Assembly (NCBI GenBank): GCA_965205265.1
Contig: CBDBGH010000003.1
Coordinates: 4,832,001-4,896,000 of the forward strand
Reading direction: 5' to 3'
DNA from: Alphaproteobacteria bacterium
GTDB taxonomy: Bacteria; Pseudomonadota; Alphaproteobacteria; Bin95
DNA: 64,000 bases
This document shows positions 16,405 to 42,629 of this stretch, piece after piece. A model generated the notes under the pieces. The model had not been told where the DNA came from and did not search any database. It saw only the letters and a list, made by a program, of their open reading frames with translations. How positions within the stretch are numbered: position 1 is the stretch's first letter; each line of letters starts with the position of its first letter. The translations under genes and the position numbers were made by a program.

Positions 16405-17530
16405 TTCGGCGAACCGGCGTCTCGGCCAGCGTCTGCGATGCCGGACGCGGCGAGGGTCCGCCCTCCTGGAGACGGCGCTCACCCTAGTGCTTCTGGGCCT
16501 CGCGGCAATGGGTGTCTCGGTCTGGCTCGATGCGGAGCGGACCGAAGGGCGCGCGCGGGATTCCGGGAGGGCGATAGCGGTGTTGGCCAATGCAGCCCGG
16601 CACCATGTGCAGGCCGACTACGAGGGGCTCATCGCCTCGGCGACCCCGGAGACTCTCGACGCCCGCGGGGACTTCACGGACGAGGATATCCTGCCGGAGA
16701 ACTTCGTGTTCTCGGACGGCATGAAGCGGGACCTCAAGGTGCTGGTGCTGCCGTCGTCGAACGGTGTCCGGGTGCTGTCGGGGCAGTTCCCGGACTCAGG
16801 CGACGGACGACCGGCCCATGCCGGCATTACGCAGGGCATGGGAGGGCAGCACATGGGGATTGTCGAGAGCGCGCGCTGTCCGTCGGGAGTGACGGCTCCC
16901 TGCCTGATGGGGCCGGGGGTTGCGGAGAGCCTCTCGGATTTCGACAGCGCCCCGGCGTTTGCCGCATCGAGACCGACCGCCGGGGCGCTGATGGTGCTGT
17001 ACGAGTTCAGCCACGATGACTGGTGCGGCGACTTCCTTCACCGAACCGAAACCGCGATCTGCGCCGATGCGAACAGGATGGAACAGACGGTCACGGTCGC
17101 CGGGGCGATTACGAATGTCTCGGTGATCGAGGGTTTCGGGACTGTCACGCTGCATGGCCCGCTGGCTGTCGGGCGAGAGCTTTCCGTGACGGGAACGGTC
17201 TCGAGCGCAACGGCCCGGATGACAGCGGGCAGCGGCCTGGAGGCGGGTACCGCCACTGTTTCCGGATCGTATGGCGCGGGGGCGCTGAATCGGGCATGCC
17301 TGACCCCGGCGACTCACTCCGCCGTCTGCAGCGACAACAGGGTCATTGTCGACCAGACGGTCCTTGGAGGGACCATCAATGTGGATGGCAGGACGACGGC
17401 CCCGTTGCGGGATGCCGATGCGGACATCGGCGATCTCAATGCCGGCTGTATCCAGGTGGACGGCACGGCCAGCGTCGAGGGCCGGGTCCGGGTCGTCAGG
17501 CAGAACATGGCTGCGAAGGGAAGCTGCTAG
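16385..17530 (+). CDS. PilV-like prepilin-type protein
   Basis: Class III signal RRG-SALLETALTLVLLGL; FLHRT...ANRMEQTV motif; beta-rich C-terminus. Confidence 0.65.
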   Translation: MAATTGNSANRRLGQRLRCRTRRGSALLETALTLVLLGLAAMGVSVWLDAERTEGRARDSGRAIAVLANAARHHVQADYEGLIASATPETLDARGDFTDEDILPENFVFSDGMKRDLKVLVLPSSNGVRVLSGQFPDSGDGRPAHAGITQGMGGQHMGIVESARCPSGVTAPCLMGPGVAESLSDFDSAPAFAASRPTAGALMVLYEFSHDDWCGDFLHRTETAICADANRMEQTVTVAGAITNVSVIEGFGTVTLHGPLAVGRELSVTGTVSSATARMTAGSGLEAGTATVSGSYGAGALNRACLTPATHSAVCSDNRVIVDQTVLGGTINVDGRTTAPLRDADADIGDLNAGCIQVDGTASVEGRVRVVRQNMAAKGSC

Positions 17531-17562
17531 TCCCGCCTGTGCGAAGACGCGACGGGGCCTTA

Positions 17563-18072
17563 CAAAGGTAAGTTGACATTGCCGTGTATCGTATCCAGTT
17601 CGGCCGCATGAGCGAGGTCTTCACGCACCGTCAGGTGGTATTCCGGCTTCTGCCGGGCCGCCGGTCCGTTTGGCGGCGTCTGGAGCGGGTTCTGGAGGCG
17701 CAGCGGCAGTTGTACAACGCCGCCCTTCAGGAACGCTGCGACGCCTGGCGTCTGGCCGGGCGGTCGCTCTCCTATATCGACCAGGCGAAGAGCCTGACGG
17801 TGTGCCGCCGGGAGGACCCCGAGATGGCGGCCGTTCCGGTCGCCGTGCAGCGCGGGACGCTGAAGCGCCTGGACGAGGCGATGAAGGGCTTCTTCCGGCG
17901 GGTGAAGGCGGGCCAGAAGCCGGGTTTTCCCCGGTTCCGGTCCCGCCGGCGGTTCGACAGCCTCTCCTTCGTCTCGGGGGTGAGGCTGGAGGACCGGGCC
18001 CGGCCCGGCGCGGACTGCGGGTCCGGCGCGGCCTGCCTGCGCCTTCCGGGTTTCGGCCCGCTTGCGGTCCGC
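17563..18072 (+). pseudogene. tnpB: Truncated copy of the TnpB element (left end and 5' third of tnpB)
   Basis: 510 bp apparently identical to 23752-24261; preceded by TA; lacks RuvC and right end. Confidence 0.9.
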
Positions 18073-18077
18073 AGTGA

Positions 18078-19205
18078 ATGATCGTGAAGACCGGCAGAAG
18101 TCCATGCGAGACGGCGGCGGCCGGCCTGGTCGGGCTGGCAATGCTGGTTGCCGGGCCCGCCGGGGCCGGGAACGCGCCGGAGGCCGTGGACTGGCCTCCG
18201 CGCCCGATGAACTATACCTCGCACAGCGAGGCATTCCTGCGCTCCCTGCTGGCGGGCCGGGTCTGGGTGTTCCGGCAGGGGATCGTGAGGCCGGAATACC
18301 GGTCGGTCGCCGCCTATGTCTTCTTCCCGGACGGGCGGCTGTCGAAATGTCTCGGGAAGAAGACGACAACCGGCGTGGAAGGGTGGCGTCCGGTCCGCGG
18401 GGGCCGTTGGTGGGTGGAGCGTCAGTCGATCGGGACCATGTTCGGCCAGGAAGACCGCTCGACGAAGCCGCGGCCCTATACCACGCCGATGTTCTATTTC
18501 CCGGAGACGGGAGCGCTCAATACCGAGACGAATTCCAGGAAGGTGAACGCGGTGGAGAAGCCGACCTGGGTTGTTCTTGCCCAGGGCTGGGTCCAGGAGG
18601 GCTGGCCAGCGGCGTTCACGGGCCCTTGCGCCGGACTGCCCCTGCCGGAGGGCATGGCTGTCGAGGAGCGCCAGACATCGCTCGACTGGGAGGCCATGCG
18701 CAGACAGGCTCCGGACGCCATTGTCCGGCACTTCCCGGGATCGGAACGCACGTCTCCGGGAAGGACGGGCATCGGCCGCAGCGGCGGCGCCCCGGCAGAT
18801 CCGGAGGATATCGAGAGGTGGCTGACCTCCTTGGAGGGGGCGCCCCTCGAGCATGTGTCCGGGCGGACCGTGACAGTCGGGCCGCGCGTGGACGGTGCGC
18901 GCGCCGTCCATCTCCTTGATGAAGGGGGAGAGGCGTACCGGGAAGGCCGGATGTCGTATCTGGCAAGCGGCGATATCGTGATCGAGGTTCCCGGCGCCCG
19001 ATCTGAGCGGATCCCGGCCGGCTATCCGCTTCCCTTCCTGCCGCTGGCCGATCCGGGTGGACGGCAATCATCGGGGATATCCAACGGACAGACCTCCGGA
19101 TCGGCCAGATGCGTCGGGGATTACCAGGGCGTCGCAACCTGGACGACGAGCGCTGACGGCAAGCGGGTATGGGACATCTCCGGCTGCAGGCCGGTCGCCA
19201 ACTGA
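18078..19205 (+). CDS. Hypothetical secreted protein
   Basis: 375-aa ORF with signal-peptide-like segment and paired Cys. Confidence 0.6.
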   Translation: MIVKTGRSPCETAAAGLVGLAMLVAGPAGAGNAPEAVDWPPRPMNYTSHSEAFLRSLLAGRVWVFRQGIVRPEYRSVAAYVFFPDGRLSKCLGKKTTTGVEGWRPVRGGRWWVERQSIGTMFGQEDRSTKPRPYTTPMFYFPETGALNTETNSRKVNAVEKPTWVVLAQGWVQEGWPAAFTGPCAGLPLPEGMAVEERQTSLDWEAMRRQAPDAIVRHFPGSERTSPGRTGIGRSGGAPADPEDIERWLTSLEGAPLEHVSGRTVTVGPRVDGARAVHLLDEGGEAYREGRMSYLASGDIVIEVPGARSERIPAGYPLPFLPLADPGGRQSSGISNGQTSGSARCVGDYQGVATWTTSADGKRVWDISGCRPVAN

Positions 19206-19274
19206 AAACGTGTCCCGGCCGGACCCGTCGGCAACGACCCTTGGGGTTGTGTCGGAGGGGACCGGGCCGGGGTG

Positions 19275-19343
19275 TTGACATGTGGTCCGGGCCGGGCTAG
19301 ATTGTGACATGTCACGAGTGGCATGAGACATATCGCATGTCAC
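19275..19343 (+). promoter_or_regulatory. Sigma70 promoter with overlapping palindromic operator
   Basis: TTGACA 19275-19280, 17-bp spacer, TAGATT 19298-19303; perfect palindrome GTGACATGTCAC 19304-19315; further TGACAT/ATGTCA half-sites. Confidence 0.7.
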
Positions 19344-19991
19344 GGAAGAGGTCTGGAGAGCCGGGTTTTGGCGGCCGAAACGGAAGACAGGGCCACCGAG
19401 GGCGCGACAGTGCGCAAACGCCGTCATCGCGAACGGATGATGGCCCGGGGTCTTGTTCCGGTCCAGATCTGGGTTCCGAAGGAAAGGCGGTCCCTGGTAA
19501 GGCGCCTCGGGCATCTGTTGCGCGAGGGGGCCGAAATCCCGTGGGCTGCCCTGAGTGACGTAAACCCCGAAGGAGAAACGGGAATGAAACTCGAACTGCT
19601 GAGCGAGAGCCTCCAGGATCACGTCTCGGAGGGCGGCTATCGCTTTCGCTGCGAAGCGAACGGCAAGGCGGAGGACGGCATTATCGTGACCGTCGAGGAT
19701 CGGGACGAGTTCCCGATCACGGTCACGGAGGACGGCGAGCACCTGCTCTGCCTCGTCCATCTGTGGCACAAGGACGAGGTCCCGGCGGAGAAGAGGCCGG
19801 GACTGGACGAGCGGCTCCTGACGCTCAATCCGAGCATGCCGCTTTCCGCGTTCGGGAGAGTCGGCGACGCCTATGTGATGTTCGGCTCCCTCGCGGCGGA
19901 ATCGAAGTTCAGCAACATCGTCAAGGAACTCGAAACCCTGAGCGAGAACTCGATCGAGGCGGTCGGCGCCGTCTCCGAGTATCTCGTCTGA
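19323..19991 (+). CDS. YjfI/DUF2170-like protein with basic N-terminal DNA-binding-like extension
   Basis: C-part LLTLNPSMPLSAFG...YVMFGSLAAES...ELETLSEN; N-part RKRRHRERMMARGLVPVQIWVP; alternative start 19584 with RBS. Confidence 0.75.
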   Translation: MRHIACHGRGLESRVLAAETEDRATEGATVRKRRHRERMMARGLVPVQIWVPKERRSLVRRLGHLLREGAEIPWAALSDVNPEGETGMKLELLSESLQDHVSEGGYRFRCEANGKAEDGIIVTVEDRDEFPITVTEDGEHLLCLVHLWHKDEVPAEKRPGLDERLLTLNPSMPLSAFGRVGDAYVMFGSLAAESKFSNIVKELETLSENSIEAVGAVSEYLV

Positions 19992-20012
19992 CCGGAAGGA
20001 CGGACAGGAATC

Positions 20013-20729
20013 ATGAAAGGCATCATCTCGAAGCTCTTCACGGCCGCGCGCGGCGCGGCGACCGAAGTCGGCGAGGGAATCGTCGATGCGAACGCGGAGC
20101 GCATCCTGGACCAGGAGATGCGCGAGGCCACAGAGGAACTCGACCGGGCGAAAGGCAGTCTCGCGACCCTGATGGGTGAACGGACCGGCGTTGCCCGGCA
20201 GGTCGATGCGCTCAGGGCCAACATCGCCGAGTATGAGGAAACCGCGATGTCCGCCATGGACAAGGGCAATGACGGTCTGGCCACCAGGGTCGCCGACCGC
20301 ATCGGGGAACTCGAGCAGGACCTCTCGGCGAAGGAGGATGCCCTGCGCCAATACGACGAGTCGATCAGGAATACCAGGCAGGCCATCCGGACCAGCGAAA
20401 ACAGCCTCTCGACCCTGCGCCGGCAGGTGTCGGTCGTGAAGGCGACCGAGCGGGCGCAGCAGGTCAGCGCTTCGGTGGCGGCCCGGTATTCGGGGACCTC
20501 GTCCAAGATGGGATCGGCGAAGGAGTCGCTGAAGCGGATCCAGGAACGCCAGCAGAAACGCGCCGACACGATGGCGGCCGCAGAGCAGCTGGCGGACGAG
20601 GAAAGCGGCGGCGACCTCGACCGCGAGATCCGGGAGTTCGAGCGTAAAGGCGGCGGGCGAAGCGGGTCTGCCGTCCTCGACCGCCTTCGCGCGCGGAAGG
20701 CCGCAACGGAGACCGAAGGCGCCGAATGA
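20013..20729 (+). CDS. pspA: PspA/IM30 family protein (YjfJ-like)
   Basis: SKLFTAARG...EGIVDANAERILDQEMRE; long coiled coil; SAKESLKRIQERQ; SAVLDRLRARK. Confidence 0.9.
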   Translation: MKGIISKLFTAARGAATEVGEGIVDANAERILDQEMREATEELDRAKGSLATLMGERTGVARQVDALRANIAEYEETAMSAMDKGNDGLATRVADRIGELEQDLSAKEDALRQYDESIRNTRQAIRTSENSLSTLRRQVSVVKATERAQQVSASVAARYSGTSSKMGSAKESLKRIQERQQKRADTMAAAEQLADEESGGDLDREIREFERKGGGRSGSAVLDRLRARKAATETEGAE

Positions 20730-20735
20730 CGGTCG

Positions 20736-20768
20736 GACAGGACGCGCCCGCACCGGGCGCGTCCTGTC
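20736..20768 (+). terminator. 15-bp stem-loop after pspA (terminator or mRNA stabiliser)
   Basis: GACAGGACGCGCCCG-CAC-CGGGCGCGTCCTGTC; no strong U-tract. Confidence 0.6.
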
Positions 20769-20813
20769 TGGACTTCCGCTTTCTGTTCGAGCTGAAACGG
20801 CTGGAGTGCGGCA

Positions 20814-21788
20814 ATGGCCGAGCAGGCCGCGACTGTGGAGCCGAAAGCCTGGGAACTTCATCCGGGTGATTTCCTGCGGCTTGGTTTTTCCGCCCCGGAA
20901 GGACTGCGGGACACAAATCTCCAGGTTACCGGAATCCATGGCGTGGTTCTCGGAGAGGGCATTCCGGTTCGACGCGTGGTTGAGCTGGACTCGGGCACCG
21001 TCCTGGGCTTCGAACGTTTTCTGTGGCGCGAGGCGGATGATCGATTTGCCGTTGCGCGGCAGGTGACCAGAGAGGAAGTCAGCGGCCTGTTCGGCCCGAA
21101 GCGGGCCGAACAACTGTATTCCGGCGCCCGGGACGGCGGCGACGCCGGGCCGCAGGGGATCCGGCGCAGGAAAGTGCTGGATGGCTTCGGCGGATGGACC
21201 GGGCCCTGCTACTGGCCGGACATGGAGATACAGGGGTGGCGCTTGGGCGCGGACCCGGACCGCGAGGATCTGCGGCAGGCTGTCGAGACGCTGCGTATGT
21301 CCGGCGAGACGCGCCGGAACCGGCGCCCGCAAGCGGTGTCGTTCGGTTTCCGGCGGCTGCTGTCGGGCGATGGCGCTCGTGCCCTGGAGGTTTATCTGCA
21401 TGAGGGCGGCCGGACGGAAATGTGCGTCGTTTCCTTTCTGCATCCGCGTCATATCGAGGAAATCGTCAGGCGGGAGCCCGTCGCGGCGCCGAAGTCGGAG
21501 AATCCGGGCCCTCATGGAAACATCCACGCCGGACAGAGGTCGTCCGCGTCGACATACAGCCGCCCGCCGGTGATGGACCGCGGCCGTTTCACCCTGATGG
21601 AGGTGCTTCTGGCACTCGGCATTGTCGGACTGATCGTCGGCGGCGGTATTTTGCTGTATTCGGCGGCGAAGGAGCGGCATGAGGCCCGACTGATCGAAAG
21701 GGAGAGGGAACGGGCCGGGCAGATCGCGCTCCCGCCTCCGCCGTCGATCAAGTCCTCTCCTCTGCACCTGGTGCCGAGCGGAGATTGA
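20814..21788 (+). CDS. YjfK/DUF2491-like protein with C-terminal pilin-like TM segment
   Basis: Paralog of next gene (AWELHPGDFLRLG...PEGL; ALEVYLHEGGRTE); C-term RGRFTLMEVLLALGIVGLIVGG. Family name partly from operon context. Confidence 0.6.
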   Translation: MAEQAATVEPKAWELHPGDFLRLGFSAPEGLRDTNLQVTGIHGVVLGEGIPVRRVVELDSGTVLGFERFLWREADDRFAVARQVTREEVSGLFGPKRAEQLYSGARDGGDAGPQGIRRRKVLDGFGGWTGPCYWPDMEIQGWRLGADPDREDLRQAVETLRMSGETRRNRRPQAVSFGFRRLLSGDGARALEVYLHEGGRTEMCVVSFLHPRHIEEIVRREPVAAPKSENPGPHGNIHAGQRSSASTYSRPPVMDRGRFTLMEVLLALGIVGLIVGGGILLYSAAKERHEARLIERERERAGQIALPPPPSIKSSPLHLVPSGD

Positions 21789-22456
21789 GCGCCGAAGCGC
21801 TGAATGAGGAGCGGAAGGGGTTTCGAATGTTGAGACGGTTTTTCGGCAAAGGACGCGACGAAAGACCCCGTCGTTCGCCCGCGGAACATGCCTGGGAAAT
21901 CGGCGTGGGCGGCTTCATGAAATTCGGGCTCTTGGCGCCACCCGAGGGTCTTGCCGAGGCGGACGTCGTTGTGAAGGCCGTGCATGCCCTGCATTTGGAT
22001 GAGGGCCATATTCGCCGGGTTCTCGAGGCGGAGGTCGTGGGCCTGGGTCCGCTGGCGATATGGAAGGGCGATGGCGGGCGGTTGGCCGTTGCCCGGCCGG
22101 CGCTGGTCACGGTGATGGAGCAGGCTTTCGGCAGGAAGAAGCTCAGGAAGCTCGTCGAGGGTGACGGTTTTTCCCTGGCCGCGAAGAGGACTCCGCCCGG
22201 ATTCGGCGGCTGGTTGTCGGGGAAGACCTACCGGCAGGAGGCCGCCCGCGAGGCGTACCGTCACGAGTGCGACCCGGAAGAGACGGAGATCGGAAGCGGC
22301 CTGGAAGGCGCGACGGCATTCGACTTCTACCGCCTTGTATCGGACGAACGAAGCCATGCGGTGGAGATCCAGGTCCATGACGGCGGGCGGACGGAAGCAA
22401 GGCTTGTGGCGCTGCTCGAGGAGCGGCATGTAGAGGAATTCCTGCCCGGAAGCTGA
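21785..22456 (+). CDS. YjfK/DUF2491-like protein
   Basis: MLRRFFGK start; FDFYRLVSDERSHAVEIQVHDGGRTE; position after pspA. Confidence 0.65.
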   Translation: MSAEALNEERKGFRMLRRFFGKGRDERPRRSPAEHAWEIGVGGFMKFGLLAPPEGLAEADVVVKAVHALHLDEGHIRRVLEAEVVGLGPLAIWKGDGGRLAVARPALVTVMEQAFGRKKLRKLVEGDGFSLAAKRTPPGFGGWLSGKTYRQEAAREAYRHECDPEETEIGSGLEGATAFDFYRLVSDERSHAVEIQVHDGGRTEARLVALLEERHVEEFLPGS

Positions 22457-22690
22457 GGGCGGACAGAGGAAGGGTGAGGCGATATGGTCGGAAGTGCAGG
22501 TAGGCCGGGCAGGCATCCAGTCGTCCCGGGCTGGCCGTCCGATGGCGGCCGTATTGTGCCGCGGGACATCGTTGACGATCTGCGGGGAGACAGAAGGCCC
22601 CGGCCGTCGCCGGAGGAGGCCGCGGAAGAGGCGGCCGCCCGGATAATCCAGGCGGTCCGGGAAGGCGCGGATCGGTAACGGCGTTTCTGC

Positions 22691-22780
22691 GGGCAGGTGG
22701 CAGAGCGGTCGAATGCACCGGCCCGGAAAGCCGGCGTGGGCTGAGGTCCACCGAGGGTTCGAATCCCTCCCTGCCCGCCA
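22691..22780 (+). tRNA. tRNA-Ser(GGA)
   Basis: Acceptor GGGCAGG/CCTGCCC, G73, encoded CCA; anticodon arm CCGGC-CCGGAAA-GCCGG; long variable arm; GGTTCGAATCC. Confidence 0.92.
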
Positions 22781-22821
22781 GGAAACGCCATTTTCGCATC
22801 GGCATCGTGCGGCCAGTCCGT

Positions 22822-23535
22822 TTACGGCTGCGGGGTCTCGTCTGTCCCCGCTTCGGCCTCCCGGCGCGCTTCGTCGATCAGAATGCCGAGTTCGTCGCCC
22901 CGGGCGCGGTAGGCGAGTTCGACGGCGTCGCGGATGAACTCCGGCGTGCAGAGTGGCAGGACGGCGGAGGCGTCCCGGCGCGTTTCGGGTCCGTCGGAGT
23001 GCTGGAGGTCGAGGATCTCGGCGTGGAGCGTCCTGTCCCGGCCGACGTCGAGACGCCACATCTCGGTTGCGCCGATCTCGCGGTAGATGATCGGCTTGTC
23101 CGGGTTGTCGCTGTTTCTCTCGACCTCGATAACAAGGTCGGGCGGGGTTGCGGCCTCGAAGGCGTCCTGCGCTTCGGGTCCGTCGTCGCAGGCGCGGGTC
23201 CAAGCGTCGGCGCTGGGCCCGATCCAGAAGCAGGCGTCGGGCTCGCTGCCGGAGTTCGGGGGATCGTCGGGCCGACGCTTCCAGCGCGTCGCGCCACGCG
23301 CAGCATACCGGATACCGAAGGCGTCGCCGATCTTGCCGACGGCGATATTCGTGCCGTGGGCGTAGCCTTCATGAAGGCCCGAGGGGGACATGAGTTCGAT
23401 AAGCCCGGTGACAGGATCGACAAGGACGCGCCTTGCGATGGTGTTCCAGTCGATGCCGGCCATGAACGGGATTTCCGAGGGCGGGACCCGGAGGGTGCGG
23501 AAAACAGACCCCATGCTGCCGGTCGTGACGTCCAT
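22822..23535 (-). CDS. Uma2 family (DUF820) PD-(D/E)XK endonuclease
   Basis: LIELMSPSGLHE, SEPDACFWIG, PPDLVIEVE, IYREIGATEMWRLD. Confidence 0.85.
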   Translation of the reverse strand: MDVTTGSMGSVFRTLRVPPSEIPFMAGIDWNTIARRVLVDPVTGLIELMSPSGLHEGYAHGTNIAVGKIGDAFGIRYAARGATRWKRRPDDPPNSGSEPDACFWIGPSADAWTRACDDGPEAQDAFEAATPPDLVIEVERNSDNPDKPIIYREIGATEMWRLDVGRDRTLHAEILDLQHSDGPETRRDASAVLPLCTPEFIRDAVELAYRARGDELGILIDEARREAEAGTDETPQP

Positions 23536-23751
23536 GGCGTGTCTCCCCAGCGATGAGCAGGTGCATTGTAGCACGGCGGGCCGGCGGCGGGATCGCGGGC
23601 ATGATGCAGCGCTTCCGCATGACGACAGCGGGACAGTCGAGAGCCTGAGCGATGCGGTAGAAGCGGGACGACATCGCAGATCCCGTTCGGCTGGACACAA
23701 GCCGGTGAGTGACACAGTTTATGGAGAAGGATATGAACACGTTGGGGCTTA

Positions 23752-25072
23752 CAAAGGTAAGTTGACATTGCCGTGTATCGTATCCAGTTCGGCCGCATGA
23801 GCGAGGTCTTCACGCACCGTCAGGTGGTATTCCGGCTTCTGCCGGGCCGCCGGTCCGTTTGGCGGCGTCTGGAGCGGGTTCTGGAGGCGCAGCGGCAGTT
23901 GTACAACGCCGCCCTTCAGGAACGCTGCGACGCCTGGCGTCTGGCCGGGCGGTCGCTCTCCTATATCGACCAGGCGAAGAGCCTGACGGTGTGCCGCCGG
24001 GAGGACCCCGAGATGGCGGCCGTTCCGGTCGCCGTGCAGCGCGGGACGCTGAAGCGCCTGGACGAGGCGATGAAGGGCTTCTTCCGGCGGGTGAAGGCGG
24101 GCCAGAAGCCGGGTTTTCCCCGGTTCCGGTCCCGCCGGCGGTTCGACAGCCTCTCCTTCGTCTCGGGGGTGAGGCTGGAGGACCGGGCCCGGCCCGGCGC
24201 GGACTGCGGGTCCGGCGCGGCCTGCCTGCGCCTTCCGGGTTTCGGCCCGCTTGCGGTCCGCCGGCGGGGCGGCAACCCGCATGGGGATGGCGAGCCGGTC
24301 TCGGCGGTGCTGAAGCGCGAGGCCGGCAAGTGGTACGCCGTGGTCTGCTACCGGGTCCCGGCGCCGGCGGTCCACGAGGATGACGACAGCGTCATCGGGG
24401 TGGACATGAACGCTGGCCAGGTGGCGGCGAGCGGTCCGGGGCCGGAAGCCCGCCTGTTCCATGCCCCGGATACGCGGCGGCTGGAGGCGAGGGCGAAGCG
24501 CCTTGCCCGGCGTCTGGCGCGCCAGAAGCGCGGCTCCGGGCGCCGGGAGCGCACCCGCGCCCGTCTGGCGAAGACGAGGCGGCGCCTTTCCGGGATGCGG
24601 TGCGACTGGCGCCACCATGTCTCGCGGACAGTCGCCGACGCCGCCCATACCGTCGCCGTCGAGGACCTCCGGGTCCGGAACATGACGCGCAGCGCCCGGG
24701 GCACGACAGAGGAGCCGGGCGCCCGGGTCCGGCAGAAGGCCGGGCTCAACCGCGTCATCCTGGCCACGGGATGGGCGGAACTGCGCTTCATGTTCGGCTA
24801 CAAGGCGGGACGGCTGCTCGCGGTCGACCCGGCCCATACCAGCCGGACCTGCGCCGCCTGCGGCCATGTCGATGCCGGCTCGCGGCGTTCGCGGGCCGAA
24901 TTCCAGTGCACGGCCTGCGGCCATGCGGACCATGCCGACGCGAATGCCGGCAGCAACATCCGGCGTCGGGGACTGGCGCTGCTGCACGGGGAGGGGCGTT
25001 CCGGCTTGCGGACCCCTGCGATCCGTGAAAACGCAGGGATGCTGGCGGCATGACGCCGTCAACTCATCTTTG
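23752..25072 (+). mobile_element. Non-autonomous TIR-bounded element carrying only tnpB
   Basis: TIR CAAAGGTAAGTTGAC (23752-23766) vs GTCAACTCATCTTTG (25058-25072), 13/15 match; TA on both sides (23750-51, 25073-74). Confidence 0.75.
23773..25053 (+). CDS. tnpB: RNA-guided endonuclease TnpB
   Basis: RQLYNAAL, KPGFPRFRS, RuvC-I GVDMN, RuvC-II AVEDL, zinc finger CAACGH...CTACGH, RuvC-III HADANAGSNI. Confidence 0.95.
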   Translation: MYRIQFGRMSEVFTHRQVVFRLLPGRRSVWRRLERVLEAQRQLYNAALQERCDAWRLAGRSLSYIDQAKSLTVCRREDPEMAAVPVAVQRGTLKRLDEAMKGFFRRVKAGQKPGFPRFRSRRRFDSLSFVSGVRLEDRARPGADCGSGAACLRLPGFGPLAVRRRGGNPHGDGEPVSAVLKREAGKWYAVVCYRVPAPAVHEDDDSVIGVDMNAGQVAASGPGPEARLFHAPDTRRLEARAKRLARRLARQKRGSGRRERTRARLAKTRRRLSGMRCDWRHHVSRTVADAAHTVAVEDLRVRNMTRSARGTTEEPGARVRQKAGLNRVILATGWAELRFMFGYKAGRLLAVDPAHTSRTCAACGHVDAGSRRSRAEFQCTACGHADHADANAGSNIRRRGLALLHGEGRSGLRTPAIRENAGMLAA

Positions 25073-25207
25073 TAAGGCCCAATGCGTACGACGGATCGAG
25101 GACGCTGGCAGCACCGTCGACAGCATTCGTGCCATCTGCCGGGATGCCCTTGCCGGCTGGGACGACAGGACCGCCATACGTCACTGACACCCGCGAAAGG
25201 ACAACCC

Positions 25208-25420
25208 ATGCCGACCTGGCGCTGCATCGCCTCCTACGCGATCTACTACATCGCCTGCGCTCTCGAGCCGGTCTTTCTTTCCCCGCCGGTCCTCATGATC
25301 GGCGGCTACCGGGCCTGGAACGCCCTGATGGGCTGGTCAGCCGATATGCAGGGACCGAACGACGCCCCGGGCCCCTGGGGGGTGCCCGATACCGAAACTC
25401 CGCAAGGAGACCCGTGTTGA
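25208..25420 (+). CDS. Small hypothetical membrane protein
   Basis: RBS AAAGGA before ATG; hydrophobic stretch. Confidence 0.35.
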   Translation: MPTWRCIASYAIYYIACALEPVFLSPPVLMIGGYRAWNALMGWSADMQGPNDAPGPWGVPDTETPQGDPC

Positions 25421-25508
25421 TCCCCGCAACAACCATATTATGGCTTTACTACGGTGGCCTGAACGGCGCCCTGCTGTACCTGGCCTGGGTGAAGAAGGAC
25501 CCCGGCGC

Positions 25509-26159
25509 ATGACAAATGCCTCCGAGCACGCCCCACATCTCCCGCTGCTGGCTCCCCACCCCGACAGCCCGGACGGCCCCGAGGCCTTGCATCTCATCGA
25601 CAGGCGGACCGGCAAGACCGTCATCCGCTGCACCGATGCCGCTATCCGCGACTGGCTCCTCGAGGCGCCGTCCCTCCTGGCCCGTCTGCATGCACATAAC
25701 CGCATTCTGACCGAGGCGCTCCGCGGCGCCGAGCAGCTGCTGGAACTATACGGCCGCAGCCCCGGCGGTGACCGCGCCCAGGGGACACAAACTGCCGCCG
25801 CCGATCCGGCCAACTCCGGAAACCTCTTGCAGACGCTCAGGGCTGCGAGCCTGCCCTTCCAGGTCGTCTCGCTGGAAGAACCCGATCTGGTCGCCGACGG
25901 CCGCTGGTTCGCCTGTTCGGACGGCCGTTTCGAGGTCACGGTGATGTCCGCCACCGATGTCGGCGTAGCCGCCCGGACAATGCGCAAGATGCTCGCCTCC
26001 GACAGGCTCGCCCAAGCTCTCCGGGAGGCGGAAACGGCCTTCATGGTCGATCTCGACCGCGACGTGCCGTTCCCCGACGAAAAACAATTCGCGGTCGCAG
26101 ACACCGTCCATGCCCTGCTCGCCGAATACGAGCAGCAGACCGGCGCCCAGCAGCCATGA
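25509..26159 (+). CDS. Hypothetical protein
   Basis: ATGA overlaps at both ends; coupled to dgt. Confidence 0.6.
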   Translation: MTNASEHAPHLPLLAPHPDSPDGPEALHLIDRRTGKTVIRCTDAAIRDWLLEAPSLLARLHAHNRILTEALRGAEQLLELYGRSPGGDRAQGTQTAAADPANSGNLLQTLRAASLPFQVVSLEEPDLVADGRWFACSDGRFEVTVMSATDVGVAARTMRKMLASDRLAQALREAETAFMVDLDRDVPFPDEKQFAVADTVHALLAEYEQQTGAQQP

Positions 26160-27319
26160 ACGCTCCGCTCGCGCCCTATGCCTCCCTGCCCCCCGACAGC
26201 CGGGGGCGACGCTGGCCGGAGCCTGAAGCCGGCGACCGCTCCCCGTTCCAGCGCGACCGCGACCGCATCCTCCATTCCGCCGCCTTCCGACGGCTCCAGT
26301 ACAAGACCCAGGTCTTCATATGCGTCGAGGGCGATCACTACCGCAGCCGTCTGACGCATTCGCTTGAGGTCGGCCAGATCGCGCGCGGCATCTGCCGGAG
26401 CCTTTCGCTCGATGAAACGCTGGCGGAAACCCTGGCGCTCGCGCACGACCTCGGACATACCCCCTTCGGCCATGCCGGCGAAAGGGCGCTCAATGCCGCG
26501 CTCGGAGGCTTCGGAGGCTTCGATCACAATGTGCAGACCCTGCGCATTGTCACCCGGCTGGAAGCCCGCTACGCCGCCTTCAACGGCCTCAACCTGACCT
26601 GGGAGACGCTGGAAGGACTTGCCAAACACAACGGGCCGTTCGCACCCGGTGCCGTTCCCGCACCCGTTGCGAACCTGGACCGGGAAATGGAACTCCGGCT
26701 TGAGGAGTGGCCGGGCCTGGAAGCGCAAGCGGCGGCGCTGGCCGACGACATCGCCTACAACAACCACGATATCGACGATGGCGTGCGCGCCGGCCTGATA
26801 GGCCTCGACGACCTGCGCGAGCTGCCGCTCTTCGGCCCGGCGCTGGGCGAAGTCGAGGCGTGCTACGGACCATTGCCGCCGGCGCGCCTTATCCACGAAA
26901 CCGTGCGCCGGGGCGTGCGGGCCATGGTGGCGGACGCGGTTGACGAAACCAGACGGCGGCTCGCCGAAGAGCGCCCGAACACCGCCGACGATGTGCGCCG
27001 GGCAGGCCGGCCGCTGGTCGCCTTCTCCGACGCCATGGCGAACACGGAACACGCGATCAAGACCTTCCTGCACAAGCATCTCTACCGCCATCCGAGCGTG
27101 GAGGCGGAAGCCGGTCCGGCGCGTGGCGCGGTCACGGACCTGTTCGCAACGCTCTCCGGCCGCCCCTCGGCACTGCCCCCGGCGTGGCGGGGCTGCACGG
27201 ACGGCGCCAATACCTGCCGGACCGCGCGCGTCGTCGCGGACTATATCGCCGGCATGACCGACCGATACGCCTTCCGCGAGCATGCCCGCCTGTGCAATGG
27301 AGATCCTCGACAACGATGA
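26156..27319 (+). CDS. dgt: dGTP triphosphohydrolase-like HD protein
   Basis: RSPFQRDRDRILHSAAFRRLQYKTQV, RSRLTHSLEV, LAHDLGHTPFGHAGE, DDIAYNNHDIDDG, DYIAGMTDRYA. Confidence 0.95.
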   Translation: MNAPLAPYASLPPDSRGRRWPEPEAGDRSPFQRDRDRILHSAAFRRLQYKTQVFICVEGDHYRSRLTHSLEVGQIARGICRSLSLDETLAETLALAHDLGHTPFGHAGERALNAALGGFGGFDHNVQTLRIVTRLEARYAAFNGLNLTWETLEGLAKHNGPFAPGAVPAPVANLDREMELRLEEWPGLEAQAAALADDIAYNNHDIDDGVRAGLIGLDDLRELPLFGPALGEVEACYGPLPPARLIHETVRRGVRAMVADAVDETRRRLAEERPNTADDVRRAGRPLVAFSDAMANTEHAIKTFLHKHLYRHPSVEAEAGPARGAVTDLFATLSGRPSALPPAWRGCTDGANTCRTARVVADYIAGMTDRYAFREHARLCNGDPRQR

Positions 27320-42053: not shown

Positions 42054-42629
42054 ATGAATAACCCGGACAATATCCCGACGGTCATCGCGCCCGCGCGCAT
42101 CTGGGCTGCGATGCATGTGCTGGTGGCACAGATATGCGAGGAATCGGAAAAGGTGCCCCCCGAGATGCATGACAGGGCCCGCGACATCCTCGACGAACTT
42201 CTTGACGATCACGTCCCCGACCCCCTCTGCCCGGGTTGGATATGGACCGACCGGCTTCGCCGCGCCGAACGGTTTACCCACTGGGACGACGCCGATGAGG
42301 CTCGCGACAGCATGCCGAACGCAACCTACGAGCCCCCGGTGCCGCATATCGACGAGACGCCGGAAGGCGAGTGGCTGGTGTGGACCTTCGTCCACGGGCG
42401 GCGCGTCTGGATTGCGCCGGACCTGAACCGGAAGCTCGAGTTGCTCCAGGCCACCATGGAGAAAGCCGGAGCCGATGTTGCCCAGGCCCGGCGCCTTCTT
42501 CAGGACTCGGAAAACCGTTACCGCCATGCCTGCGACGCTGTCGCCGTGCAAACGGCTGCGAACGCGAGACTGGCGGCCGAAGAAACCGCTGTGGGGGACA
42601 ATCCTGACGACGACCTGCCGGCGCCGTGA
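42054..42629 (+). CDS. Hypothetical protein
   Basis: ORF downstream of boxes; coiled-coil C-terminus; ends DDDLPAP. Confidence 0.55.
   Translation: MNNPDNIPTVIAPARIWAAMHVLVAQICEESEKVPPEMHDRARDILDELLDDHVPDPLCPGWIWTDRLRRAERFTHWDDADEARDSMPNATYEPPVPHIDETPEGEWLVWTFVHGRRVWIAPDLNRKLELLQATMEKAGADVAQARRLLQDSENRYRHACDAVAVQTAANARLAAEETAVGDNPDDDLPAP

Follow-up and report, generated by a model that had tools for sequence, protein, structure and literature searches.

The window considered here, a stretch of 64,000 nucleotides of alphaproteobacterial DNA (assembly GCA_965205265.1, contig CBDBGH010000003.1, positions 4,832,001 to 4,896,000), contains a transposable element built around tnpB, the gene for an RNA-guided endonuclease. 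Cas12 descends from TnpB, which is best understood in IS605 and IS607 elements, with scarless excision next to a fixed target-adjacent motif (TAM). The tnpB element of the window spans positions 23744-25080 (1337 bp) and ends in 23-bp terminal inverted repeats (TIRs), GGGGCTTACAAAGGTAAGTTGAC at 23744..23766 (+) and GTCAACTCATCTTTGTAAGGCCC at 25058..25080 (+), which agree at 20 of 23 positions. In our judgment, it is very probably a nonautonomous transposon in which TIRs of the IS1595 type surround a cargo of tnpB and its omegaRNA and which is moved in trans by an IS1595-family transposase.

The tnpB open reading frame (ORF) occupies 23773..25053 (+) and encodes 426 aa when read from the GTG at 23773; since homologues align from about residue 8-15, the ATG at 23797 is the likely start (418 aa). 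Its stop codon lies 27 bp from the right end of the element, not 19 bp as stated in an earlier note drawn up from the letters of this DNA alone. The ORF matches OrfB_IS605 (6.7e-14) and Cas12f1-like_TNB (9.6e-14) in Pfam and guided_TnpB (RNA-guided endonuclease TnpB; 1.9e-53) in NCBIfam, and its product scores above the curated cut-offs, given here in brackets, of PF01385 (52.6 bits [30.5]), PF07282 (51.7 bits [26.3]), and NF040570 (182 bits [100]). In an alignment of 24 sequences of 50-100% identity, D211 and E297 of the RuvC domain and the zinc-finger residues C360, C363, C379, and C382 are invariant, and the third RuvC acidic residue, D389, is conserved in at least 90%. The protein also aligns over residues 7-394 with ISDra2-type TnpB structures (PDB 8h1j, 8bf8/8ex9/8exa; E ~3e-25), and both the catalytic D, E, D and the zinc finger fall in register. 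Judged by its sequence, the gene looks intact, and the earlier description of an intact TnpB with a RuvC acidic triad and a zinc finger is borne out. Neither tnpA, whose absence had also been noted before, nor any other long ORF is found within the element bounds. LAGLIDADG-2, the sole Rfam match in window 23000-26000, lies inside the ORF and reaches 29.7 bits compared with a gathering score of 94.9; it was taken as a chance match.

A search of the source genome recovered seven full, near-identical copies of the element and one truncated copy, which lies at 17555..18072 (+) of the window and comprises the first 518 bp, including a left TIR with 1 mismatch and the 5' portion of tnpB. Identity across the seven full copies begins at 23744 and stops at 25080, and the flanks beyond the 23-bp TIRs are unrelated from copy to copy. 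Six of the seven copies are bordered, directly outside the TIRs, by a perfect 8-bp target duplication that is different at each site. Seven identical or near-identical copies point to recent movement in the source genome. In DNA run X1, the element has ~8 times the contig depth of its flanks, in keeping with the number of copies. Among the contigs that four DNA runs yielded for window 16500-26500, none spans the element and none shows an empty site; they end at the repeat. In run X4, a depth of ~500-1600 at window 23744-25082 stands against 0-40 in the flanking window DNA, so that in this sample the element is far commoner than the window locus, through many copies or another host. The window copy lies ~1 kb downstream of a tRNA-Ser(gga) gene (22691-22780), with a 297-aa minus-strand ORF between the two, a setting that resembles an island beside a tRNA gene.

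These boundaries lie 8 nt outside the repeats recognized in the earlier note, which had started the element at 23750 and had described 15-bp imperfect TIRs flanked by a TA duplication. The repeats are present (13/15 matches; left, 23752-23766) but form only the inner part of the 23-bp TIRs, and copy identity moves the start to 23744. The supposed TA duplication (left, 23750-23751) corresponds to positions 7-8 of each TIR, the real duplication being 8 bp long, and the near-palindromic empty site that had been rebuilt from it is merely the outer 8 nt of both TIRs. An actual empty site is available for the copy at contig 3:1267771, the orthologous flanks of which are present in the congeneric genome G016. 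There, the left flank (~73% identity) leads into a single diverged 8-mer and on into the right-flank orthologue, and the site shows nothing TIR-like and no GGGGCTTA...TAAGGCCC remnant. Flanks of another copy, at contig 3:5259608, had no orthologues among 16 congeneric genomes. By showing no trace of the repeat, the G016 site speaks decisively against both the assignment of the element to IS630 and the alternative of an IS605 element inserted in a hairpin repeat, which the note itself had proposed to judge by such sites.

The ends of the element connect it to the IS1595 family. A 2840-bp element at contig 3:1919671-1922510 of the source genome, framed by its own 8-bp duplication, has both ends of the tnpB-element type, the TIRs of the tnpB element agreeing with them at 19 and 20 of 23 positions. 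It encodes a 332-aa protein with matches to DDE_Tnp_IS1595 (1.3e-41), Zn_ribbon_IS1595, and NCBIfam transpos_IS1595 (1.5e-60), together with passenger ORFs; one of these, a lipoprotein-like ORF of 277 aa, gives a weak, sub-threshold match to TbpB_B_D (E 2.6e-4). G016 contains a 1724-bp IS1595-transposase element (L127) that has this TIR type and is flanked by an 8-bp duplication, and in genome G425 an IS1595 transposase gene (L133) is preceded by a same-type end, the locus sequence not reaching the other end. Of 13 transposases compared with that of the source-genome element, those of L127 and L133 are the closest (73% and 61% identity, versus 27-57% for the 11 others). No end of the tnpB-element type was found at the loci of six further IS1595-family transposase genes in the source genome. 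A/T-rich 8-bp direct repeats, a property of the IS1595 family reported for ISApl4 (PMC12561309), likewise border the tnpB element. The element thus combines ends that match those of IS1595-transposase elements with A/T-rich direct repeats of 8 bp, inside the 7-9 bp expected of the family, and it lacks a DDE_Tnp_IS1595 gene of its own. Its 23-bp TIRs and variable 8-bp duplications set it apart from IS200/IS605 (IS1341-type) elements, which have subterminal hairpins and insert beside a fixed tetra- or pentanucleotide, and the position of TA inside the TIR separates it from IS630/Tc1-mariner elements and their TA duplications. The ends appear to resemble the motif of the ISNwi1 subgroup in ISfinder, a tentative subgroup assignment.

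The same TIR type (23-mer with up to 5 mismatches) is shared in the source genome by about 12 miniature inverted-repeat transposable elements (MITEs) of 214-248 bp, 8 of 12 of which are flanked by perfect 8-bp duplications; examples outside the window lie on contig 3 at 42319-42552, 1205672-1919, and 2518416-663. The MITE interiors have nothing but the TIRs in common with the omegaRNA region described below, and the MITEs are therefore not omegaRNA-only derivatives of the tnpB element. A dispersed repeat of CATGAC heptads occurs genome-wide (42 matches of a 15-mer at up to 2 mismatches), and the insertion of several MITEs as well as of the 2840-bp IS1595 element at one and the same A-rich 8-mer of this repeat points to a preferred target.

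Over the last ~120 nt of the tnpB element, nucleotide conservation is far above what the C-terminal protein tail would need. This region, 24960..25080 (+), shares sequence with the C-terminal tail of tnpB and with the right TIR, and we presume it to be the omegaRNA scaffold of tnpB. Its predicted structure was derived with RNAalifold from 27 right ends in a MAFFT alignment that was not fitted to any structure and was refined to five helices, which fall at 24963-24979 (H1), 24985-25027 (H2), 24993-25016 (H3/H4), and 25034-25071 (H5). In these helices 94.1% of the cells pair, compared with 33-48% when the partners are slid by 1-3 columns, and cells with double changes number 73; in shuffles they number 21 +/- 3, with 0 of 500 as high as the real alignment. 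Covariation is seen at every one of the four base pairs of the central hairpin. In H5, the segment just after a conserved CCGTGAA pairs with nt 10-14 of the right TIR, counted from its outer end, and each pair shows 2-9 double changes; the 3' strand of this helix thus lies inside the right TIR, and the element's terminal 9 nt stay unpaired. Pairing and covariation that involve TIR nucleotides suggest that the right TIR serves both the transposase and the RNA. The minimum free energy fold of the window's own sequence reproduces the helices (24963-25071). The region has no Rfam family match, and a sixth helix drawn around the stop codon was discarded, with 66% of its cells paired and zero double changes. 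In line with this covariation-supported model, the suggestion that an omegaRNA overlaps the 3' end of the ORF appears to have been well founded.

In TnpB and Fanzor elements, the guide is described as following the transposon end (PMC10691335, PMC10711439). By analogy, the guide should start directly beyond the right end of the element, and the putative guide region would be 25081..25096 (+), the first ~16 nt outside. The earlier proposal of a TAM near CTTA and a guide starting with TAAGGCCC is unsupported, because these letters belong to the TIR end and are the same in every copy.

A single base next to the insertion sites departs from symmetry. Read in tnpB orientation, the base before the left duplication (position -1) is G in 21 of 22, 3 of 4, and 10 of 11 cases, that is, in 34 of 37 independent sites with perfect duplications. 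The mirror base after the right duplication is C in 14, T in 14, A in 5, and G in 4 cases, and in the small control provided by the tnpB-less MITEs, G was found in 4/8 and 3/8 at the two ends. A TAM of 4-5 nt in the left flank was considered and rejected, positions -2 to -6 being variable at the six sites of the source genome and across the family. The -1 G would look like a minimal TAM or a discriminator between self and nonself; alternatively, it may reflect an asymmetric target preference of the transposase. One could go further and propose that TnpB of this clade is a homing nuclease for a DDE transposon with variable insertion sites, in which the guide starts at the 8-bp duplication, the -1 G is a footprint of retention or homing, and the target requirement is nearly PAM-less. 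At an occupied site, the right duplication is always preceded by the terminal C of the TIR, so that under this proposal G (empty) versus C (occupied) at -1 would be the sole base telling the sites apart. We regard the homing proposal as fairly unlikely.

Relatives of the element were sought more widely. Among 8000 database candidates scored, 1293 were related to this TnpB at E <= 1e-30, and an alignment-based scan of genome contigs yielded 80 loci, compared with only 4 in a single-protein scan. TIRs were scored at 65 TnpB loci (57 full-length loci of the 80, 3 from relatives, and 5 own copies) as ungapped 22-nt inverted ends starting with GG, at least 17/22 matches counting as positive. This threshold was reached by 36 of the 65 loci, of which 17 have 8/8 and 4 have 7/8 duplications, and three further loci combine 8/8 duplications with a diverged left end and weaker TIRs. 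Metagenome loci showed the same kind of TIR in 13 of 72 scanned (of 80), 4 of them with 8/8 duplications, and 8/8 direct-repeat sites number 37 overall. The hosts comprise Alphaproteobacteria (the source genus, Thalassobaculaceae, and Paracoccaceae), one gammaproteobacterial metagenome-assembled genome (MAG), and Rhodothermota/Bacteroidota MAGs, the TnpBs of which share no more than 34-36% identity with the query. Across at least four genera, the TIR-bounded unit is duplicated as a whole and carries 8-bp repeats.

A tree of this family was built from 49 intact TnpBs after 12 of 61 frames had been excluded as broken; the search was quick and the root was placed at the midpoint. In this tree, 26 of 28 strictly TIR-positive rows fall into one clade of 33 rows (SH-aLRT 99), and five of the seven clade members scored as TIR-negative show degenerate TIRs in a gapped comparison. 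All clade members examined are solo tnpB genes that share this kind of TIR and have 8-bp duplications rich in A/T. Such ends are absent from the sister group, 16 rows from Actinomycetota and others, apart from two loci that passed the 17/22 threshold and that we do not count as family members: L119 is a GC-rich chance match, and L097 has a different TIR type and lies outside the clade. At L097, from an Acidimicrobiaceae MAG, tnpB is enclosed by 22-nt inverted repeats of another kind (21/22), perhaps accompanied by a short direct repeat, and this locus may represent an independent TIR association of tnpB. The sister group also includes L091, where a Y1_Tnp gene (3.3e-23) abuts tnpB just upstream. 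The simplest reading of the tree would be that an IS1595-type element captured, on a single occasion, a tnpB/omegaRNA module of the IS605 type; the direction can only be inferred, because the tree stems from a quick search with a midpoint root.

Several observations weigh against the interpretation of the element as a transposon mobilized in trans by an IS1595-family transposase. The flanking 8-mers of the window copy agree at only 5/8 positions and hence form no duplication, and relatives such as L015, L037, L052, L056, and L057 also stand without one. The 12 broken frames (L062, L070, L077, L085, L086, L092, L093, L096, L106, L110, L112, and L113) are interrupted before the end of the match, as decaying MAG copies or through assembly indels. 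The candidate partner is single-copy, and its ends differ from those of the tnpB element at 3-4 of 23 positions. Genomes G435, G436, and G437 hold both TnpB elements and IS1595 transposase genes, and at the 8 IS1595 loci concerned, searched over 1.5 kb on each side, no end came within 7 mismatches of the TnpB-element TIR of the same genome. No IS1595 transposase was detected by tblastn within 4 kb of tnpB in 94 loci, and a random 8-bp duplication offers no obvious place for a classical 4-5-nt TAM. As the copies are otherwise identical, the window copy is most simply taken to have lost its duplication in a later rearrangement, in which two direct copies recombined or adjacent DNA was deleted. 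The lack of an IS1595 transposase near tnpB is the reason why we infer mobilization in trans and, given that no transposase is encoded in the element or at the 94 related loci, why the element is classed as nonautonomous and not as an IS. Judging from these sequence comparisons, the transposase that mobilizes it is probably encoded elsewhere in the genome.

Another transposase might move this TIR- and duplication-bearing element, or nothing might move it any longer, in which case its IS1595-like ends would merely reflect shared ancestry. The absence of a transposase in cis at any locus, the missing end matches in G435-G437, and the differences from the ends of the candidate partner all fit this explanation, which we nevertheless consider unlikely: the seven identical or near-identical copies imply recent movement, the only co-resident transposase gene found between such ends belongs to the IS1595 family, the TIR type tracks transposase relatedness in three genomes, and MITEs with the same ends have also spread in the source genome. 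Far less credible is an IS200/IS605 (IS1341-type) tnpB element, bounded by TTGAC...TCAAC, inside a small TIR-bearing hairpin repeat. It would account for TTGAC at the inner edge of both TIRs, which recalls the TTGAT target and TAM described for ISDra2 (PMC13565253), and for the IS605-type nature of the sister clade. Set against this, no tnpB unit devoid of TIRs was found, no tnpB-less 40-bp TIR-TIR hairpin occurs among the TIR matches listed in the genome, the unit duplicated across genera is the whole TIR-bounded element with its 8-bp repeats, H5 pairs and covaries with TIR nucleotides, and the G016 empty site holds no hairpin. As an account of present-day mobility this explanation is refuted; such an insertion may have been the route of the ancestral capture. 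The chance that the element is instead a nonautonomous relative of IS630/Tc1-mariner, with 15-bp TIRs and a TA duplication, appears negligible. TA does adjoin the 15-nt repeats in the window, and TnpBs linked to IS630 have been described (PMC10691335), but TA and the adjoining 6 outer nt do not vary among the copies and are part of the 23-bp TIRs, variable 8-bp direct repeats sit beyond these, the G016 site retains no TIR remnant, and the transposase encoded between matching ends in the genome is of the IS1595 family. The earlier observation was therefore real and mis-delimited, and it is partly confirmed: the IS630 assignment was wrong, and the idea of a nonautonomous, DDE-mobilized element with TIRs and a target duplication that carries only tnpB was right.

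Mobilization by an IS1595-family transposase allows a tentative outline of how the element might work. A tnpB/omegaRNA module would have been captured once from an IS200/IS605-type ancestor and would then have diversified as a unit with its TIRs, and the omegaRNA would have recruited the inner right TIR for one strand of its final helix. An IS1595-family DDE transposase, for which the 332-aa protein of the element at contig 3:1919671-1922510 is the best candidate, would act in trans and create A/T-rich 8-bp target duplications upon insertion. Transcription through the right end could provide each copy with a guide from its own right flank, consisting of the duplication and adjoining sequence. 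As has been shown for TnpB of IS605 and IS607 elements, the nuclease may cut uninserted or excised alleles and in this way favor retention or homing of the element.

Associations of TnpB with DDE transposases are already on record. Altae-Tran et al. (2023) describe six DDE-associated TnpB branches (DDE-1 to DDE-6) with inverted terminal repeats, together with solo TnpBs that lie between these same ends and are probably mobilized in trans (PMC10691335), and Kojima (2026) names ISL2, IS630, and IS1031 as the DDE families concerned and discusses the rarity of such associations (PMC13565253). IS1595 is named in neither main text (PMC10691335, PMC13565253), and the present clade may figure in the supplements; a literature search found no paper on a TnpB-IS1595 association by title or abstract. 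Like the DDE-associated TnpBs, the element described here carries tnpB between DDE-type inverted terminal repeats, with its 3' end near the transposon end, and occurs as solo, multiple, and apparently active copies; unlike them, it belongs with the IS1595 family, has no transposase in cis in the members examined, and is flanked by a variable 8-mer instead of a fixed TA. With IS1595 elements and their derivatives, among them MITEs, cargo cassettes lacking a transposase, and passenger-carrying 'transporter' IS, it shares the TIR type common to IS1595-transposase elements in three genomes, A/T-rich 8-bp repeats, and co-resident MITEs with the same ends, and the candidate autonomous element likewise carries passenger ORFs. 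It differs from them in a cargo made up of an RNA-guided nuclease and a scaffold that, according to the structure model, recruits TIR nucleotides.

As in IS1341-type elements, a single tnpB of ~400 aa is accompanied by a predicted omegaRNA overlapping its 3' end and by no transposase in cis, and the sister clade is of the IS1341 type; however, the element has TIRs and duplications, both of which IS200/IS605 elements are described as lacking (PMC13565253). ISDra2, an IS605-type element with a TTGAT TAM, is a distant relative. A parallel in organization is offered by Fanzor1/Fanzor2* of eukaryotic and viral cut-and-paste transposons, where a TnpB-family nuclease is likewise the only gene in a nonautonomous transposon with TIRs and a duplication (PMC10711439). 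In those cases, the duplication is reported to be also part of the scaffold, and the RNAs were mapped by sequencing (PMC10711439), whereas the present omegaRNA is predicted from sequence, the 8-mer varies with each copy, and the element is prokaryotic and encodes a typical TnpB protein.

DDE-associated TnpBs and solo TnpBs mobilized in trans being already in print, our analysis adds a named candidate partner, a model of a TIR-embedded omegaRNA, and the -1 G. The 2026 review treats as open the question of how TnpB might benefit a DDE transposon when the duplicated 8-mer is random (PMC13565253). Should the TAM be as short as it looks, the nuclease would be of interest for genome editing; if not, it would be a clean and fairly ordinary cargo of a nonautonomous IS derivative. 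In the proposed omegaRNA, the TIR that binds the transposase would double as an RNA structure, and the asymmetry at the -1 base provides a directly testable TAM candidate. An active multicopy element that shares its genome with a candidate partner transposase makes this clade a tractable bacterial system.

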